DNA of 33,836 nucleotides from a virus (Duplodnaviria > Caudoviricetes): the IMG/VR virus record IMGVR_UViG_3300027969_000262, positions 1 to 33,836 of that record; one strand, given 5' to 3'. Of the stretch, positions 3,582 to 32,848 are shown in pieces. The notes under the pieces were generated by a model, which was given only the letters and a program-made list of their open reading frames with translations, was not told the origin of the DNA and made no database searches. The translations under genes and the position numbers were made by a program. Each line of letters opens with the position of its first letter. Positions within the stretch are counted from its first letter, which is position 1.

Positions 3582-3839
3582 TTAACACTTCCATCTTTTT
3601 AGTGATGCTGCTTTGCGGGTTGGTTTACCGTTCTCGTCTTTCATAGGGCCGGGCATTCCACTCATACGTGCACAAAATGACTTCTTACGAGGACCACCTT
3701 CAGGTTGAGGTGCTTTTAAATTAGAACCAGTTTGTGAATTATATTTAGCACGACCCTTGGCAGTTAAACCCGCACCTTTTGATACAGGTAACTTTTCTCC
3801 ACGGCCAACAGAAAGATTAACTCCTTTTTTAGTTGCCAT
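3582..3839 (-). CDS. small basic phage protein, DUF6321-like
   Basis: GLTAKGRAKYN..GSNLKAP..RKKSFCARMSG..LKRWKC signature, recognised from memory. Confidence 0.75.
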   Translation of the reverse strand: MATKKGVNLSVGRGEKLPVSKGAGLTAKGRAKYNSQTGSNLKAPQPEGGPRKKSFCARMSGMPGPMKDENGKPTRKAASLKRWKC

Positions 3840-4142: not shown

Positions 4143-7100
4143 TTAACGTTCTGTTACAAACCCTGATGCCAAACTCGGCTTAACTATACCACCTTTAATA
4201 TCTCTTTGACGCTTAAGTTGTTCTTGTGGAGCTCTAAATAGTTCTGATATTGGTTGGCGCTTGAGGCCATTTCTAACTCTAGCAAGTTGTGTATCTTCCC
4301 ATTTTCGTCTAATGTCGCCCATTTCTTCTGTGTCACCCTTACGGAATGCTTGTGTGTATTCAGTTTTTAATTCAGTAGTACGCTCACTATAGAACTTGTC
4401 AGCCTTAAATTCTGAACTCATTATAAACTGTTTATCAGTAATTTTATTAGTTGGTAAACCTAAAGCTTGGCTCATAGCATCTAATGTACTTATATCATCT
4501 GCTGATAGAACAACATCACCATTACGTTTTACAACTCCTTTGTCTAGTAACTCAAAAGCTTTAACTGCGTTACCTAATCCAGTAGGAGCAAGTGCTGCTA
4601 AACCTTTGTAGTAGTTACCTTGAGTCATAAGTCCAATACCATCAATTACTTTAGGTAGTAACCCGCCTAGGAAAGGACCCATAGAAGCAGCTAATGCTTT
4701 GGCATATCCGTCACGACTTAAGTCAATCTCTGTATATGGAAGGATAGACAACATCTGACCCATACCTAACTTACCTGATAAATCCACACCTAATAACTTA
4801 GGAATACCTTTTAGCAATACATCAGCAACTGCATTATCACCAATTATCTTGCGCAGTGTAGCTTCTGGATTATCAGGTTCATCTTCATCCCCAAATGCAG
4901 CACCAACTATCCATGCAATTGCAGCAAATCCGGGCATACCCATAACACCAGCCATGGCAAATGTATGACTTAATGTATATATGAGTGCTTTTTTACCAAC
5001 AAGACGTATCTGTTTGGTTTCTTCTGCGTTTTTACCTACTCCTTTAAAAGACTGATTAATCAATTTAGCCATTAAACTAATCTGAATTAACTGGAACTTC
5101 CTAAACTGAGTCATTAAACGACCAACACCTTGACGAGTAAATCTTGGAGCATTAAACCCTGAGTAGTCACCGTGTGTATCAATAATAACTTTATCAGCGT
5201 AAGCAATAGCGTCTGCTTGACTTGCCCCATCTTGTTTTTCTAATCGATAGGCAGCAACTGCTGTAACTACACGGTTAATAGATTCAACATCTTGCGATAT
5301 ACTTCTTAGTTTTTCTATGGCAACACTTGCAAGATTCTTTTCTTCCGTAGACTGCCAACGGCCTAAGTCACTTTCCAAACTAATATCAATACGACCTGAG
5401 TTAACCAAGGTTTCAATTGCTTCTCTTACATCTGCAGGTAACTTAGAATATGTTTTTTCATTTAAACCTTCTGAACGAATCACACTGGCAATATCTTTAT
5501 AACCCTGCATCATTGCAGAAGTTGTTTTAGCATACCCGTGTTTAGCGGCCATAACAGGCATAGACATCATGTAAGGCTGAGTTAAGTTTTGTAAATAGTA
5601 TGCAGGATTAGTTAATAGCATCCACATAGAAGTTATACCAAGGGCTTTATCTAAAAGTGGATTAGACTCATAGTTAAATGCCATGGCATGTCGTTTCATA
5701 AACTCGTTGTAATACCTACGACGATCACCACGACCAGTTGTAGAAGCATCAGCTTCTTTTTTCATATTACGTAATTGGTCATATATTGCACTGGTATTAT
5801 GTAAAGTAGATATAAAGTGTGCAGAGGCTCTACCTTGTGTGGCAAAAGAACGCATCATGTCATCTTCAGCACCAGCAATACCTTTACGACGGTTCTCAGA
5901 TTGACGAGCTGACTGGTCAGACAACAAAGCTAATTGTAAGTTTAATAAAAGACTGTCAATAGTTTTCTTAGACTTGTTACTTAAATCTCCAAGAGAATCA
6001 TCTGCCATAGTACGGAAACGTTGGAATACATCGCTTACATCTTTACCACCATACATGGCACGTTCAGCGTCATCTTTTTCAAATGGTTCTACAAAAGCGT
6101 AGTTACCTTCTTGACTACGAGCTATGGCTTTAGCTTCTGCCCATGTCTCAGCAAACTGAACAAAATAATGATCACCATCTTTCTGTAACTTCTCAATAGT
6201 CTTGCGATCTTTGGCTTCTTCAGCATTTAAATATTCTTGGGACTTACCAGCAACTACATAGTTACCAAAACGTTTTAGAGGCGCATATGGAGAATTAGCT
6301 TGCACAGACATCAAACTACGATAGTCTCTTAGTGCATCTGCCTTTTTCTTTTGTAGACTAGACACTTCTTTAGCATCTTCATCGGCTTCAGCTTCTTTAA
6401 TTAGAGCATCGTATTCTGTTGTAATGTTACTCATTACGCTTTGTTTCATATCAGACAAGGTATTAAAACCATGTTCAAATACTTTTTTAATTACTTTCTG
6501 AGCGTTGTCAGGCATTTTATTAAATCTGTCAGCTATATCTTTATCAATAGGAACAGCTTCTTTAATCCACGACGGTTGGAATCCCCATTTATTACCCATG
6601 GTAGAATCTTTTAGAAACTTATTAACGCTTCCTTCACCAGTACCTTTAACGGATTTATCTAGCTTTTCGTAATCTTGTAAAACTTCTTCAACTCTACGTT
6701 CATACTTAGTTTTTATAGCCTGACGTTCTTTCATCAAACCTACATACTTTGTTACAGATGGAATGTACTTCTGAGCAACTAGCGCTAAGTCTTCAGTAAA
6801 CGATGCCCATATAGAACCTTTTTTAGCCGCATCTTGAATTGTGTCAAATATAGCTTGAACCGGTCCTCTATAGCTAGGAGGTAGTGCATCAATTCTATTC
6901 TTGGCACCAGCACGTATAGCACTAATTGGTTGTATAGAAAACCTAATATCACTACTATCTAAATTATATGCTCCACTGTTACCAATAGCAGATTTAATTT
7001 GATTAGAACTGTAGACAGCTAAATTTCTTACACCTTTTTCTGATACATAAAACGCATCAAATTCAGAACGTTTAATTGCAGCTTGTACCTGTGGAGACTC

Positions 7101-10100
7101 TATTACAGACCACTCACCTTGTTGCAACTTATCTTCCCAATTCCACCCACTAAATTCTTTATCAAGTTCTTCTTTTTCACGTTGGAATAAATTTTGTTTG
7201 ATAAGGGCTATGTGTTTTTCTTTACTGTAATCAAATGGGTTTTCAGCACGAACAAACACAGGCATAATGTTTGCATACTTTTCTACTTCTTTAGAAGACT
7301 CTATTCCCCATTGTGCTCTTAAGTTTGCATAATCTTCAGCAAATTTAATACTACTTGTTAAAAATATAGCATTGCCTTGTTTAGGTCTAAATTCAACAAT
7401 GTCTTGTGCAGTACCGTGATACATTACTTTTGGAGTTCCATCTTGGTTAACTATTTTACTATTTCCAAACCATTTTTTAAAGTTGTTAACTGCAAAAGAA
7501 AACTGAACTTTATTAGTTGGTACTAAAATATTTTCTTGGATAACCAAATGAGCTGCACCGTAAGCCAAATCAACTACATCTTCAGCAGTTAAACTTTCAG
7601 AAGTAAATCCTAATTTTCTAAGTGCTCTTTTAAACGCACTAACTATGGAAGATAAAAATCTACCTAAAGGGGTAGGAGAATACTTAACAGTCGGGTTAAT
7701 TCCAGCTTTAACCGCTTCTTCAATAAAGTATGCAAGAAGTTCATCATTCATGGAATCTACAGATGTTTTAGCAGCAGCTACACGTTCCAATGCTTTAATA
7801 GCAATTTTGCCTTCTACAGAATTTTTATTACCAGCCCACTCATTAATCTTATCAATCAGAGTGTTAAATTCTTTATCGCCTAACATCTCTTGTAAACCTA
7901 AATGAGATCCAACTTCATGTAAGAATACAGCACGAATATCATTTGGATTAATATTATCAGCAATTAAATATGCTTTACCTGCACCAGTTACAAATCCCCC
8001 AACCCTCTCTTGGTCAGATAAAGACTGTTGAATTAGCGGTGGTAGTTGTGTAATACTTTGAACAATACGAACAACTTTACTACTGCCTAACCCAATAAAA
8101 TCTTTTAACTCGGCTGCAATCTGTGCAGTTGTAGATTTTTCAGTAGTTTTTTCTTGTTTGCTTAGTTGTAGTTTTTCTTCTTTGGCCGCAAGTTGCGTAC
8201 CTTTTGTTCCTGCTACAGTTTCAGTACCTACTTTTTCTGTAACAGTTTTTGTCTTTGGAGTAATACCTTGGCGAGCAATATCTTTTTCAAGCACGGCTTT
8301 ACCATTGACAAACTCCATTACATTTTCTTGGTTATCAGGAACTACAAACAACGTAGCGCCATTCATCTGGTTTTCATGTCCTTTGAGAACCTTACCAAAA
8401 GTATCTTTGTCTACATTAATACATCCAAACGAATACCTTGAGTTCTGCGGACCAGACTCTTTAAGTGCTTGTTGACGTTGTTGTGCATCTTTCTCGCTCA
8501 ACCATACAGAGTGCATCAATGTAGTAAAGTACTTATCTCCAGTGTTTTCATTAACACCTTCAACTCCATATACAGTATCAAAATCATACCCTTTAGTACT
8601 AGATGTATTAGTTCTTTGTACTAACTTCATTAACCCAGCAGGAGTAATCTTGTTGGCATCAATGTTGTTATCACCCTTCATGAAATCGCCAAAACTTTTA
8701 GCAACTAAAACTTTGCTTTGGAATAGTAGTGTTCCATCAGGATTAAAAATAAACTGAGTTGCTGTTGGCTTGTCAGTAATAATAAACAACTTATTTGTTT
8801 TAGCTAGTTCATCTTTAATAGTTGGATAAATAACTTCATACGCACGTTGTGCGGCAGGGGACATATTTTTAGCAACAGTGCTAGGAGCTTTTTGTATAAC
8901 TTGTTCAGTCCGAGTTTCATATGTAGGAACTATAATTTTAATAGGGTCAGAAGCTAAATTCGGATTTAATACAATAGCTATGGACATTACACCATTGGCG
9001 ATCTGCTTAATTATGTCACGTACAGCACCAGCAACTGCTTCGGCACCCTTGGTAACATACTTAAGAACATCGTCTTTAACTTTAGAAATAAATTCTTCAG
9101 TGCCACGTTTAGCTTTGTAATGCTGTTCTAATCTAGTATTTTGTGCATCTGTAAGACTGCTTGTTTGGTCGGTAATTAGTTTAACTTGTTCTTTCTCACC
9201 AACAGAAACAATACGAGCTTCACCTTCAATGGTACGAGACTCATCTGCTAGTTGTTCAGCAGTTTTACTTTCTACTTTTTGTTCTGTTTCAAATATTTTG
9301 TTGGCAGTAATTAAATTGCCTTTGTTATCTTTAACTGCAAGTGCCCAATCAGCTTTACCTGTTGGAGATAATCCATCATACTTAACAGGAGCACCTAATG
9401 CATCCCATAGTTGAGCGGCAGACTTTGTTTCCTTAGTAGTTTTTTCTTCTACTTTCGGGGCTCTTTGCTTTTTCTTTTCGACTTTGACAACAACTTCTCT
9501 GGAAGTGTTTTCGGGTTTGGCGTTTCCTTCGCCCACTGCTTGGCCACCTTCGGCTGATTTGCGAACATTTCTCTCATCTGTGCTTTGCTCTTGAAAGGCA
9601 TTTTCTGCTCCTTTTTTACTTAGGTTTTGAGTCTTAGATAACTTCTGTGCTTTCTTAGCCAAAACTTCAGCCGCAGCCAAGTCAGCTTCAAGGTCTTCTT
9701 TCTTTAGAGTTAACTCGTCTACTGTTTCAGAATCATCATTGGCAGTAGCTGCATCAATTTTAGCTTCAAGGTCTTTTATTTGTTGGATAAGCTTTACACC
9801 TTTAGTGCCAACAGATTCACCCAAGTTATATTGTTCATTAACACTAATAGACTTACGAGAAGATTCTTTAACACCAGTTTCTTCTTCCTGACCTTCTTTG
9901 TTTTTAACATTAAGTTCAACTTCATACTGACCAAGTTCTTGTTTAATCTCAGATTCTATATCTGATATGTCTGAACTTAAATCATTGTTACCAAGAGTAA
10001 GTAATTTGGCAAGAGTAGCATCGTTCTCAATGTTATACTTTTGTTTTATTTCAGCAATAATTCCCGGTAATAATTTTTTAGTTGTTTCAGACCAACCTGC

Positions 10101-12554
10101 TTTAAAATTACCTTCTTCGTCAACTATTTCTGAAGCTCTTTTTCTCCAGTTGGAAACTGTGTTTTCAGTAACCCCATACAGTGTTTTTAGTTCAACAGGA
10201 GTAAGTTGCTCGTTTAATGGAGTACTAATTAGATAAGCAAACAATCGTTTAATCTTAGGCTCTGTGTTTGCATCCATGGCATTATTTTTTACAATAATAC
10301 GGTCAGCCAACATCACAGCATAGTTAGGTTTCTCATCAAAGTCAGCTAATATATTTTTAACAAGACGACTAGTAACATTGCCTGTAGAAACTGCTCTTGT
10401 CCACTTATCCTTTAAATCTTGGGAGAGATAAGCGTAGTCAAGTCCTGTCTCTCTTCTCCAACGCTGTCCTTCAGGGGAGTTATTTTCTCTTTCGAACTGT
10501 TGTCTGTTTTGTTCAAAAAATTCATCGCTTGCTCTATCAGCATTTTCTGCCCCTTCAACTCCCCCAGCTTGGCTTTCGCCATTAGTAATTGGAAGTTGTT
10601 CATTTACTTGCCCCGTCTCTTGCCCATTAGGAACAGTACTGGTGATGGCTCCACCGGCATAATCCCGTGGCACTGCTTCTCCTCCTCCGACATCTTGCTG
10701 GCCGTTCTGGACACCATTGTCGCTTCCTGTCCCGATGGGTCGAATGCCATTGGATTGTAAAAGCCCAAGGTCTCCCGTTCCAGTTTCTGCTGCTCTTCCC
10801 TCGACTGATACATCTCCCACCCCGGCAGGCACTTGCTGTTCTGTTTGTATTCCATTTGTTTCTCCTATTAAATTATCACGAAAATTCTCTAAAAAGCCCA
10901 ACTGGGCTGCAGTACTCTTACCTTTTTTACCTTCTAAGTCTTTAATCTCTGCTTTAACACGATCAAGAACATCATCAATGTTAGTAGCACCTGCTAAGTA
11001 TGCTTCTACTTTACCAGCTAAACTCTTAGGTGTAATTGTTTTATCAGTGTTTTGATTCTTAAATGCATCTAACCAAGCAAATTCTACATGGTGTGTAAGC
11101 TCAGGTTTGGCTGCTTCTTCTACAAGTATCTTATCAACAGCTTCATTAAGCTTGTTAGTCATGCCTGAGAAATACATGTTTCCGTTAAACTTAACACCAA
11201 TCTGTGCACCCTGCTCATTAAAAACGGGAGTAGTGCCAAACTTATCTAATATTGTTTTACGAGATGCAGCTTGCTGTGCTATTTCTTCTTCAGTTTGTTG
11301 TTGTGCTTTTTGTTGATTGGCTTGTGCGTTGGCAGTGGCAACTTGTTGTGAATCTGGCCCAGCCTGTCGTTGCATTACATCAAATGCAGTCTCATCTCTT
11401 TCAACACCAGTAGCAGGGTCAGCAATCTTTCTACCTGTTGGTTCATTCATAGCAGCAGTCATATCTGCTTGCCGTTGTTTAATTAGTGCTTCTTGTTCTT
11501 TCTTCTGTCTGTCTACAACACCAACTGTTTGATTAACAATTTCTTGTGTAGATAAACCCGGACCTGCATTTACGTTAATTGCGCCTTTAATGGCATCGGC
11601 ATTTGAAGTTACATTGTTTGTATTGTTGTCAAACGAACCGCCTAATAAACTATTCTCTGGTCTACGTTCACCTGCAATTCCAGCCATACCACCACGGATA
11701 ACTCCACCACCAATACCACCTTTAATGGCTGATAGTCCGTACTCGTTATATGCTTCAGCTCCAGTTAACTCTTTAAAAGCACCGTATCTTTCAAGCCCAG
11801 TTTGTATAGTTTCTGTTCCGGCTTCTTCAGCTAGTCCTATTGCACCCTGCTTGGCTATGTTTTTTGTAAGGCTAGTACCAGCTTCTCGTTGTAAGAAACT
11901 TGAGCCTTTACCTAATACTTTATTAGTAAGTCGTTCAGCACCAAGGGCAGTGTCTAAAACAGCAGCAGCACCGCCAGTCATAAGAGCACGGCCAACATCA
12001 TTCATTCCTGCTTCTCTTTGGTCTGCTCTAATACCACCGTATTCTTGTATTAAGTTACCAACATATGCACCACCCGCACCACCAATAGTTTGTCCAACAG
12101 CTGCTCCAGCAACAGTACCAACACCCGGAACAACGGAACCTGCAACACCACCGATAGCACCACCAATAGCTCTTCCAGCCATACCAGTTAATGCTGATAT
12201 ACCAACTTGTGGAATAACTTCACCAATGGCTTCACGAGCCGTAGTAAATGGACTAGATAGTGCTTCTTCTACAGTGTTAATTTGAGATGGGTTGCGACGA
12301 ACTACTTTTTCGCCATAAGATTGAATTGCTTCACCTGTTTCTCTAGGCCCGATATCTTGTAGAGTAGAACCTAAAGCAGATATTGCTTGACCACCACCTC
12401 TTTTTATGTCCGAGATAAACCCGGGCTTAGACATCTTAGGATCTTTTTTAAGGCCAGCCTGTATTAAATCATCTTCTATATAGTTAAAAGAATTCTTATC
12501 GTTTAATAACCCAGCTTGGATTAAATCTGATTTTATATAGTCATCAAGAGGCAT
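4143..12554 (-). CDS. giant polyvalent internal-virion/ejection protein (2803 aa): Gly/Ala hydrophobic N-terminus, HTH-like motif, L,D-transpeptidase-like, zincin-like, ART-PolyVal-like and PLxRFG domains
   Basis: Motifs LMH..RYSFGCINV, VFLHEVGSHLGL, FKKWFGNSK..YHGT..NQIKSAIGN and APLKRFGNY; last gene of the ejection cluster. Confidence 0.88.
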   Translation of the reverse strand: MPLDDYIKSDLIQAGLLNDKNSFNYIEDDLIQAGLKKDPKMSKPGFISDIKRGGGQAISALGSTLQDIGPRETGEAIQSYGEKVVRRNPSQINTVEEALSSPFTTAREAIGEVIPQVGISALTGMAGRAIGGAIGGVAGSVVPGVGTVAGAAVGQTIGGAGGAYVGNLIQEYGGIRADQREAGMNDVGRALMTGGAAAVLDTALGAERLTNKVLGKGSSFLQREAGTSLTKNIAKQGAIGLAEEAGTETIQTGLERYGAFKELTGAEAYNEYGLSAIKGGIGGGVIRGGMAGIAGERRPENSLLGGSFDNNTNNVTSNADAIKGAINVNAGPGLSTQEIVNQTVGVVDRQKKEQEALIKQRQADMTAAMNEPTGRKIADPATGVERDETAFDVMQRQAGPDSQQVATANAQANQQKAQQQTEEEIAQQAASRKTILDKFGTTPVFNEQGAQIGVKFNGNMYFSGMTNKLNEAVDKILVEEAAKPELTHHVEFAWLDAFKNQNTDKTITPKSLAGKVEAYLAGATNIDDVLDRVKAEIKDLEGKKGKSTAAQLGFLENFRDNLIGETNGIQTEQQVPAGVGDVSVEGRAAETGTGDLGLLQSNGIRPIGTGSDNGVQNGQQDVGGGEAVPRDYAGGAITSTVPNGQETGQVNEQLPITNGESQAGGVEGAENADRASDEFFEQNRQQFERENNSPEGQRWRRETGLDYAYLSQDLKDKWTRAVSTGNVTSRLVKNILADFDEKPNYAVMLADRIIVKNNAMDANTEPKIKRLFAYLISTPLNEQLTPVELKTLYGVTENTVSNWRKRASEIVDEEGNFKAGWSETTKKLLPGIIAEIKQKYNIENDATLAKLLTLGNNDLSSDISDIESEIKQELGQYEVELNVKNKEGQEEETGVKESSRKSISVNEQYNLGESVGTKGVKLIQQIKDLEAKIDAATANDDSETVDELTLKKEDLEADLAAAEVLAKKAQKLSKTQNLSKKGAENAFQEQSTDERNVRKSAEGGQAVGEGNAKPENTSREVVVKVEKKKQRAPKVEEKTTKETKSAAQLWDALGAPVKYDGLSPTGKADWALAVKDNKGNLITANKIFETEQKVESKTAEQLADESRTIEGEARIVSVGEKEQVKLITDQTSSLTDAQNTRLEQHYKAKRGTEEFISKVKDDVLKYVTKGAEAVAGAVRDIIKQIANGVMSIAIVLNPNLASDPIKIIVPTYETRTEQVIQKAPSTVAKNMSPAAQRAYEVIYPTIKDELAKTNKLFIITDKPTATQFIFNPDGTLLFQSKVLVAKSFGDFMKGDNNIDANKITPAGLMKLVQRTNTSSTKGYDFDTVYGVEGVNENTGDKYFTTLMHSVWLSEKDAQQRQQALKESGPQNSRYSFGCINVDKDTFGKVLKGHENQMNGATLFVVPDNQENVMEFVNGKAVLEKDIARQGITPKTKTVTEKVGTETVAGTKGTQLAAKEEKLQLSKQEKTTEKSTTAQIAAELKDFIGLGSSKVVRIVQSITQLPPLIQQSLSDQERVGGFVTGAGKAYLIADNINPNDIRAVFLHEVGSHLGLQEMLGDKEFNTLIDKINEWAGNKNSVEGKIAIKALERVAAAKTSVDSMNDELLAYFIEEAVKAGINPTVKYSPTPLGRFLSSIVSAFKRALRKLGFTSESLTAEDVVDLAYGAAHLVIQENILVPTNKVQFSFAVNNFKKWFGNSKIVNQDGTPKVMYHGTAQDIVEFRPKQGNAIFLTSSIKFAEDYANLRAQWGIESSKEVEKYANIMPVFVRAENPFDYSKEKHIALIKQNLFQREKEELDKEFSGWNWEDKLQQGEWSVIESPQVQAAIKRSEFDAFYVSEKGVRNLAVYSSNQIKSAIGNSGAYNLDSSDIRFSIQPISAIRAGAKNRIDALPPSYRGPVQAIFDTIQDAAKKGSIWASFTEDLALVAQKYIPSVTKYVGLMKERQAIKTKYERRVEEVLQDYEKLDKSVKGTGEGSVNKFLKDSTMGNKWGFQPSWIKEAVPIDKDIADRFNKMPDNAQKVIKKVFEHGFNTLSDMKQSVMSNITTEYDALIKEAEADEDAKEVSSLQKKKADALRDYRSLMSVQANSPYAPLKRFGNYVVAGKSQEYLNAEEAKDRKTIEKLQKDGDHYFVQFAETWAEAKAIARSQEGNYAFVEPFEKDDAERAMYGGKDVSDVFQRFRTMADDSLGDLSNKSKKTIDSLLLNLQLALLSDQSARQSENRRKGIAGAEDDMMRSFATQGRASAHFISTLHNTSAIYDQLRNMKKEADASTTGRGDRRRYYNEFMKRHAMAFNYESNPLLDKALGITSMWMLLTNPAYYLQNLTQPYMMSMPVMAAKHGYAKTTSAMMQGYKDIASVIRSEGLNEKTYSKLPADVREAIETLVNSGRIDISLESDLGRWQSTEEKNLASVAIEKLRSISQDVESINRVVTAVAAYRLEKQDGASQADAIAYADKVIIDTHGDYSGFNAPRFTRQGVGRLMTQFRKFQLIQISLMAKLINQSFKGVGKNAEETKQIRLVGKKALIYTLSHTFAMAGVMGMPGFAAIAWIVGAAFGDEDEPDNPEATLRKIIGDNAVADVLLKGIPKLLGVDLSGKLGMGQMLSILPYTEIDLSRDGYAKALAASMGPFLGGLLPKVIDGIGLMTQGNYYKGLAALAPTGLGNAVKAFELLDKGVVKRNGDVVLSADDISTLDAMSQALGLPTNKITDKQFIMSSEFKADKFYSERTTELKTEYTQAFRKGDTEEMGDIRRKWEDTQLARVRNGLKRQPISELFRAPQEQLKRQRDIKGGIVKPSLASGFVTER
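9449..9601 (-). CDS. overprinted (+1 frame) small basic protein, 50 aa: MPFKSKAQMREMFANQPKVAKQWAKETPNPKTLPEKLLSKSKRKSKEPRK
   Basis: AAGGAG SD 6 nt upstream of ATG; the sequence resembles stand-alone phage MPFKSxxQ..W.KET..KLPE proteins (from memory); locally raised GC. Confidence 0.72.
   Translation of the reverse strand: MPFKSKAQMREMFANQPKVAKQWAKETPNPKTLPEKLLSKSKRKSKEPRK
10412..10603 (-). CDS. candidate overprinted (+1 frame) protein, 63 aa
   Basis: ATG immediately follows the TAA of the nested 83-aa ORF (TAAATG coupling); same +1 frame. Confidence 0.5.
   Translation of the reverse strand: MNNFQLLMAKAKLGELKGQKMLIEQAMNFLNKTDNSSKEKITPLKDSVGEERQDLTTLISPKI
10604..10855 (-). CDS. candidate overprinted (+1 frame) protein, 83 aa
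   Basis: SD AGGAGA 5 nt before ATG (TAATAGGAGAAACAAATG); region about 55% GC versus about 33% in a flanking 60-mer. Confidence 0.6.
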   Translation of the reverse strand: MEYKQNSKCLPGWEMYQSREEQQKLERETLGFYNPMAFDPSGQEATMVSRTASKMSEEEKQCHGIMPVEPSPVLFLMGKRRGK

Positions 12555-32429: not shown

Positions 32430-32657
32430 CTAGCGTCTCATTTTGACAATTAATGCTTCCGCATTTTCGACTAAATCAAGAATTTCCTTGTAAGCCCCGG
32501 CTTCGCCTTGTAACCGGTAAATCTTTTCTACATCGGTAACTTGTGCCATCATTTCTAGAGATTCCTGCCGTTTGGCTCTGAAATACTCTGTAAGGTGATC
32601 GAACTCAGGTCCCCGTAAAAACGTGAAGCATCTAGCTACACGCTCATCAATTCTCAT
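32430..32657 (-). CDS. hypothetical protein (Bbp19-like position after portal; IYRLQG motif)
   Basis: 75-aa helical ORF, TAATG-coupled to the upstream gene. Confidence 0.75.
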   Translation of the reverse strand: MRIDERVARCFTFLRGPEFDHLTEYFRAKRQESLEMMAQVTDVEKIYRLQGEAGAYKEILDLVENAEALIVKMRR

Positions 32658-32848
32658 TACTTACACATGCCGTCAGTTTTAGCTGATTCCTGTGCATAAC
32701 CTTCGCTACGGGACATATAAAAGTCACTCATACTTGGGGCACTACCTAGGCCAGTTTGTCCGCCTTTGCACATACCATCAGTCTTAGCAGACTCTTGTGC
32801 ATACTCGTCTTTTCCGCCACGTTTTAACTTATTAAAAATTTCAGCCAT
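32657..32848 (-). CDS. small protein with internal duplication YAQESAKTDGMCK x2
   Basis: SD AAAGGAG; exact 13-aa repeat with synonymous DNA differences. Confidence 0.75.
   Translation of the reverse strand: MAEIFNKLKRGGKDEYAQESAKTDGMCKGGQTGLGSAPSMSDFYMSRSEGYAQESAKTDGMCK

Follow-up and report, generated by a model that had tools for sequence, protein, structure and literature searches.

The window, by which we mean the whole stretch of DNA analysed (33,836 nt), is a 33.8-kb virus record carrying a podovirus-like late module on its minus strand. This module comprises a portal fragment, capsid, adaptor, tail spike and lysis genes, and genes for internal virion proteins, and it ends in a 2803-aa ORF (4143-12554, minus strand), the last large gene of the virion module. 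Three small ORFs (A, B and C) lie inside this giant gene. The features discussed below are as follows:

4143..12554, minus strand: giant polyvalent/DarB-like gene, host frame, 2803 aa (Pfam, PHROGs, relationship to DarB-like giants)
6969..7448, minus strand: ART-PolyVal domain of the giant (PF18760, residues 1703-1862; Pfam match)
10861..10866, minus strand: SD of ORF A, AGGAGA, 5 nt 5' of the ATG, whose GGA is read as Gly in the host frame (sequence and conservation)
10604..10855, minus strand: ORF A, 83 aa, nested +1, new unnamed family (homologues, dN/dS, fixed start)
10412..10603, minus strand: ORF B, 63 aa, +1, start abutting the stop of A (TAAATG), probable gene in a fast-evolving slot (slot conservation)
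9608..9613, minus strand: SD of ORF C, AAGGAG, 6 nt 5' of the ATG (sequence, anti-SD pairing)
9449..9601, minus strand: ORF C, 50 aa, pI 10.7, nested +1, phrog_1375 family (profile match, dN/dS, predicted two-helix hairpin and Lys-rich tail)
10410..10856, minus strand: linker 1 of the host frame, about residues 567-715, an acidic stretch reading through A and B (pI 4.1 and 4.4; hydrophobic fraction 0.20 and 0.18)
9447..9602, minus strand: linker 2 of the host frame, about residues 985-1036, reading through C (hydrophobic fraction 0.15)

The giant was classed as a polyvalent protein, being multidomain, encoded in a virion module and associated with polyvalent-type domains (LPD23, ParB, and ART in relatives). 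With the polyvalent proteins treated in the main text of Iyer et al. (2017; PMC5512222) it shares the build of a giant multidomain late-module protein with an ART-PolyVal domain and a metallopeptidase-type motif; judged by that text and by its late-module context, it is likely an ejection protein, i.e., an injected virion protein. Residues 1995-2753 match the DarB-like phrog_10089 (PHROGs), and cultured phages have DarB-like/PLxRFG giants to which the C-terminal domain is related. Public runs, most of them labelled as freshwater or lake metagenomes, contain near-identical DNA, and no RNA run was among those listed as carrying it. Promoter and terminator scans of the window gave chance-level results.

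Several further elements of the window were recorded. A 231-aa antisense ORF (11590-12285, plus strand) lies opposite the Gly/Ala-rich N-terminus of the giant and is probably a shadow of that N-terminal composition. A His...Ser-x-Gly-Cys pattern was noticed at 8290-8450 on the minus strand (about residues 1370-1420 of the giant), in a region present in 17 of 63 hosts, all of them carrying C; we take the pattern to resemble the active sites of L,D-transpeptidases (YkuD), a likeness for which Pfam and PDB gave no support. The late module also contains a small 63-aa ORF with an internal repeat (32657-32848, minus strand) and a DUF6321 gene (3582-3839, minus strand); DUF6321 also neighbours free-standing C in four loci.

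ORFs A, B and C are complete, each with its start and stop wholly inside an ORF of another frame. The earlier note had described them as a cluster of overprinted same-strand genes, all in the +1 frame of the 2803-aa ORF, and their offsets (1699, 1951 and 2953, each 1 mod 3) confirm this geometry. The two SDs that it reported (AGGAGA-5 nt-ATG and AAGGAG-6 nt-ATG) and the TAAATG junction are present in the sequence, and its hand-counted GC values were reproduced (0.556 at 10621-10800, 0.483 at 9481-9600 and 0.333 at 10921-10980). The rise in GC was rejected as stand-alone proof of dual coding. So was ORF length, since a +1 ATG ORF of at least 83 aa appears in 22% of 500 synonymous reshuffles of the host gene, which places the observed lengths within chance. 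Among the 186 ATGs inside the giant, the start of C ties for the best anti-SD pairing (-7.9) and that of A comes next (-7.3), compared with -3.9 for the giant's own start. All three peptides are hydrophilic (GRAVY -0.55 to -1.46), none has a Pfam match, and neither A nor B has a match in PHROGs. With lengths within chance, it is the relatives that decide the case: homologue evidence puts A and C far beyond chance, and the case for B is weaker.

In a profile scan that gave 63 viral loci, 62 had A nested in +1 within a host frame that is long and open, and the remaining one ran off the contig end. The same arrangement was seen in 45/45 metagenome loci, many of which duplicate the viral set and three of which are identical to the window at ORF A. 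The host frame is open through the overlap in the nested A loci, with the exception of L313, a 1.3-kb MAG contig in which an 8-nt tandem duplication (L313:230-260) breaks the host frame just upstream of an intact A; this is possibly an assembly error or a mutant. No free-standing A was found in the viral and metagenome loci searched, cultured phages gave no match to A, and the A profile retrieved 12 proteins from 1.84 billion representatives. A language-model search for A returned leads under 0.9 at most, and its structure model is weak (pLDDT 65.5, pTM 0.30) and has no fold match.

The start region of A is strictly conserved, as the earlier note had proposed to check. The ATG is fixed in 51/51 distinct copies. 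All 51 also use GGA as the host Gly codon that makes the SD core, a codon found at 1650 of the 10594 Gly positions of these genes overall, and codon use varies at two control Gly columns (14/3/1 and 8/3/3/1). The starts of A were chosen by best SD, so that this conservation is partly circular, yet the Met aligns as an invariant first column. Pairwise dN/dS of A is 0.22-0.26 in the +1 frame and 1.9-2.1 in the host frame, whereas the giant's C-terminal domain, used as a control, shows the reverse (0.11-0.14 in the host frame, 1.4-1.5 in +1, with stops in +1); since the pairs are phylogenetically non-independent, the dN/dS values are descriptive. The same phase emerged from a frame-blind DNA alignment of A (0.13/0.08/0.21 by +1 codon position). 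Strains of the window phage give support that is independent of these pairs: 10 of the 12 variant sites in A, two of which share one codon, fall at the +1 third position (p 0.0005). Only 1/12 is silent for the host frame, vs 17/25 of the inter-ORF sites, a fraction that refers to the sites listed, 23 others being unshown. Five variant sites in C were excluded from the strain comparison as present solely on low-identity pieces.

ORF B behaves differently from its neighbours in that its slot, and not its sequence, recurs. A +1 ORF of at least 35 aa begins within 60 nt of the stop of A in 36/51 A-bearing genes, vs 1.2% of 1345 control stops, and direct coupling to the stop of A was found in 16/51, vs 0.9% of the same controls. 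The slot is filled by several unrelated peptides and changes quickly: the B peptide of the window has no BLAST match to 40 other B-slot peptides, and 23 pattern-matched stretches in viral contigs included no relative. For one B-slot family dN/dS is 0.33-0.42 in +1 and 0.52-0.68 in the host frame. Among the window strains, 4/7 variant sites in B are silent in +1 and 1/7 in the host frame, a difference that is not significant. Judged by the slot, ORF B is a probable gene.

ORF C matches phrog_1375 (PHROGs v4, function unknown) with an E-value of 2.3e-5 over residues 3-47. The homology search of the +1 peptides that the earlier note had suggested thus succeeded for C, and it gave no database family for A or B. 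The phrog_1375 family is large: about 1700 stored stretches fit the pattern, and 480 of 600 scanned encode a relative. Most of the best 80 loci are free-standing (52); 16 are nested in +1, one is nested in -1, and 11 are overlapped by a long antisense frame. Free homologues start at the same Met as nested C. For the nested core dN/dS is 0.08-0.20 in +1 vs 1.7-2.4 in the host frame, so that the per-frame comparison outlined in the earlier note bore out purifying selection in +1 for both A and C. An SD-like purine word precedes nested C in 36/37 distinct copies from A-bearing hosts. Free copies of C have a stop in the corresponding host frame in 26 of 41 cases, including 14/14 in loci below 48% GC, so the open host frame over nested C is not automatic.

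These observations bear on the explanation that none of the three is a separately initiated gene and that each +1 frame is either a tail reached by frameshifting in the giant or a shadow that a biased linker casts by chance. In its favour, about 20% of synonymous reshuffles produce ORFs this long, and of the 261 alternative-frame ORFs in the hosts that are SD-led or coupled, 254 lie in +1, which means that +1 shadows are common. Opposed to this are the fixed ATG and SD spacing, the +1 purifying selection with a relaxed host frame, and the shared start of nested and free C. We regard this explanation as very improbable, and it is live only for B. On the comparative evidence, A and C are conserved protein-coding genes under purifying selection in +1.

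The host frame over A, B and C differs in composition from the rest of the giant, with a hydrophobic fraction of 0.15-0.20 over the overlaps vs 0.29 for the whole protein, and it is likely a flexible linker. The apparent positive selection in these linkers (dN/dS about 2) is a wrong-frame artefact. The proposal that the low-complexity linkers are the alternative-frame read-through of real small genes therefore holds for A and C, and is probable only for B.

The C family is not confined to the giant. Nested copies also occur in hosts without similarity to the giant outside the overlap, namely a gene of about 400 aa (L064 and L079) and a 3694-aa 'structural protein' of phage elemo. In the former (L064:2656, L079:1929) the C-family gene is nested in +1 in a gene located between the portal gene and a phrog_13704 virion gene. 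Unannotated nested C was likewise observed in Flavobacterium elemo phages and MW202828 (L083:12002-12130 in NC_062743; L084:10001); the RefSeq record of the cultured Flavobacterium phage elemo (NC_062743) annotates the host gene only. The elemo nested copy has no SD, and an SD-less start fits translation in Bacteroidota. Weak C matches were obtained in 68 Flavobacterium phage records. Phage C75C1 (OQ984151) contains a weak, unannotated C-family match (L085:6001; E 0.09) between two annotated small genes, and five loci (L041, L049, L052, L054 and L055) encode 192-198-aa proteins that have the C motif as their N-terminal part, a fused form. C was absent throughout 13 related phage records without nested C (nine of them at least 90% complete; two positive controls matched), and is thus dispensable or replaced in part of the clade.

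The predicted structure of C is a two-helix hairpin with a Lys-rich tail (pLDDT 76), for which PDB gave no match and BFVD returned, in its top region, only uncharacterised or unnamed phage proteins. Comparison of 56 C members with Pfam identified no meaningful family. Membership of DUF3008 (PF11450), the nearest Pfam family by language-model features (0.87, a lead only), was rejected, as 0/56 members match it (E up to 1). On a weakly resolved tree of 40 columns nested and free copies interleave; 12 label changes are needed, and the starred branches force two of them. This pattern suggests a repeated origin of nested C.

Embedded Rz/Rz1 spanins are a lipoprotein/spanin pair in a lysis cassette. 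This identity was rejected for the nested peptides, which show no spanin family match, are hydrophilic, and lie in a host that is not a lysis gene. A homing nuclease was rejected for A, B and C as well, no HNH or other nuclease match appearing in Pfam, PHROGs or fold searches. Family and fold searches of the three peptides give no function.

Free C has a terminase, portal, scaffold, connector or virion gene no more than two ORFs away in 12/36 loci, and 24/36 have no recognised head or virion neighbour, in a scan covering 100 of the 147 listed neighbours and five added proteins. In the Streptomyces phage FlowerPower a free homologue stands directly before the holin gene. This position is what would be expected if the small proteins were late-infection effectors aimed at the host cell (binding nucleic acids or ribosomes, timing lysis or countering defence) and simply had to be expressed late; the small size, basic charge and partial dispensability of C, as well as the rapid turnover of unrelated peptides in the B slot, agree with such a role. 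Unrelated phages, however, show strong conservation of the C core, most of the neighbours recognised for C belong to packaging or the virion, and no family or fold match to a known effector was obtained. We therefore consider host-directed effectors unlikely.

The earlier note had also raised the possibility that the nested products are antidotes, shielding the producing cell from the ART or peptidase domain of the giant. Protection in stoichiometric amounts would be well served by expressing both from within one gene, and the giant of the window does have an ART-PolyVal domain. The distribution of these domains contradicts the proposal. ART is sporadic in relatives and not linked to A or C: it was detected by phmmer in 2/63 hosts, only one of which has A, and by Pfam in 3/60 middle regions, whereas A is present in 25 hosts and C in 41. 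The HExxH peptidase domain is not closely tracked either, A occurring with it in 14 hosts and without a detectable one in 11, and C in 23 and 18, respectively. The antidote proposal is largely refuted for ART, and as a whole has very little probability in our judgement.

Further relatives of the host were sampled as 80 loci fetched by the host's C-terminal domain, the query rows coming from A-bearing phages; the host tree built for them was a quick tree. Among 62 5'-complete host genes, A is present in 24, C in 40 and either of them in 43, always in +1. Counting the window (63 hosts), A is found in 25, C in 41, and a further family, D, in 24 (motif count). D (L216:5328-5528; L229-L263) is a 67-aa nested +1 gene that is unrelated to A and fills its slot; it was nested in 35/35 loci, with a +1 dN/dS of 0.18-0.24. 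Additional recurring or SD-led +1 families were observed (L220:7308-7487, L195:8532-8723, L166:8616-8756 and L225:1114-1287); they comprise family E in slot 1, two basic families further downstream, and one nested peptide matching phrog_2423. Representatives of D, E, G and the B-type peptides have no PHROGs match. The giants of the cultured distant relatives Atu_ph08, Skulduggery and douglas 12A4 contain two, one and no SD-led alternative-frame ORFs of at least 40 aa, respectively, and by eye none of these is similar to the nested families described here.

The exchange of A and D could mean that each nested protein serves an adjacent host domain as its dedicated partner, be it chaperone, packaging adaptor or inhibitor, each domain moving with its hidden gene as a functional cassette. 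A and D are mutually exclusive (together in 0/63 hosts), each follows its own upstream helical domain, without a cross-family BLAST match, and after C most hosts run on into a similar small domain (by eye), a region 3' of C for which no significant solved relative was found. The same co-variation is, however, predicted by physical linkage alone; C also occurs in unrelated hosts (such as the 400-aa gene after the portal gene) and as a free gene, and the window retains A beside a divergent upstream domain, at most 34% identical to that of the main A clade. Dedicated partnership consequently seems rather improbable to us. A broader version, in which giant ejection-protein genes would generally act as landing pads whose fixed slots accept interchangeable small-gene cassettes free of stops (A/D/E, B-type, C and G-type), each a linker plus a dedicated domain partner, and in which domain and helper would shuffle together to form a hidden operon layer across tailed phages, is somewhat more plausible, although we advance it tentatively and would not expect it to hold.

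The explanation that we favour, and hold to be reasonably probable, is that A and C are conserved nested genes which, together with B, are likely translated from internal SDs on the late mRNA as predicted accessories of virion assembly, the giant frame staying open and likely serving as a flexible linker. A single late mRNA read end to end would yield the giant, internal SDs on the same mRNA would yield A and C, and B would be made by re-initiation after A. Their SDs being stronger than the giant's start, the small products may reach a higher copy number than the giant. The host frame would be selected to stay open and linker-like, with the +1 frame fixing the sequence, and the giant gene would double as a small late operon. 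Predicted from context and chemistry, the C protein is most likely a basic protein that binds DNA and helps in head assembly or packaging, and the A protein an accessory of the giant's N-terminal module, because A goes together with a single upstream helical domain, and hosts with a different domain there have D in its place.

Such an arrangement likely arose by modular growth of the giant, in which small late genes already present were crossed by read-through fusion or recombination and stops were then purged from the shifted frame. The idea that the giant grew by absorbing neighbouring genes fits C, whose family is mostly free elsewhere, and is unproven for A. The polarity implied by the label 'overprinted' is probably the opposite of the true one for C, because the family exists as an ordinary free gene and the linker is thus likely the newer frame. 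De novo origin of C as the younger, overprinted frame was rejected, as most of its best 80 relatives are free-standing and nested and free copies interleave on the tree.

Internal overlaps are already known in phages, Rz1 within Rz of lambda being one. Another is E within D of phiX174, as given in the available text of Pavesi (2021; PMC8227390). As in these cases, a complete small gene lies here in a longer same-strand gene in a shifted frame. The accessible accounts of those pairs differ from the present locus in three respects: here (i) there are several nested genes per host gene, with exchangeable families at fixed slots, (ii) the host frame is relaxed (dN/dS about 2), and (iii) at least one nested family is also a free gene. 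ShiLan, according to the portion of its description at hand (2025; PMC11855218), is a selfish homing nuclease encoded by a foreign out-of-frame gene without a detectable ribosome-binding site, through which the host frame reads stop-free as a predicted loop. The stop-free host frame is the likeness to that account; in contrast, none of A, B and C matches a nuclease, the SDs of A and C are strong, and the sites are interdomain linkers of a virion giant. For 'ORgenes' (out-of-frame remodelled genes), the consulted sections of the report (PMC8788219) suggest that fusing or integrating a whole gene out of frame can build new host sequence, whereas in the present case neither product appears to have been lost and the start signals of the absorbed gene are still its own. 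In the main text of PMC5512222 the words 'overlap' and 'linker' are absent and both uses of 'nested' refer to a hairpin fold. The literature searched (mainly open-access main texts) did not describe genes nested within those for polyvalent or ejection proteins. What sets the present locus apart, as far as these texts extend, is that a host carries several conserved, SD-led genes, that families can replace each other at fixed slots, and that the host frame is relaxed.

Nested genes are usually single curiosities of tiny genomes in which the inner gene is the newcomer, whereas here a 2,800-codon gene carries a small operon and the inner frames are the constrained ones. Conserved families (A, D and others) turned up solely as such hidden genes, which means that gene callers can miss them, and the apparent positive selection in such linkers is a warning that this signal can mislead. 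The cultured elemo phages allow a direct test of nested genes. Recurring 'low-complexity' linker motifs would be explained as shadows of real genes, and the nested arrangement offers a concrete route by which polyvalent proteins may gain length and linkers.
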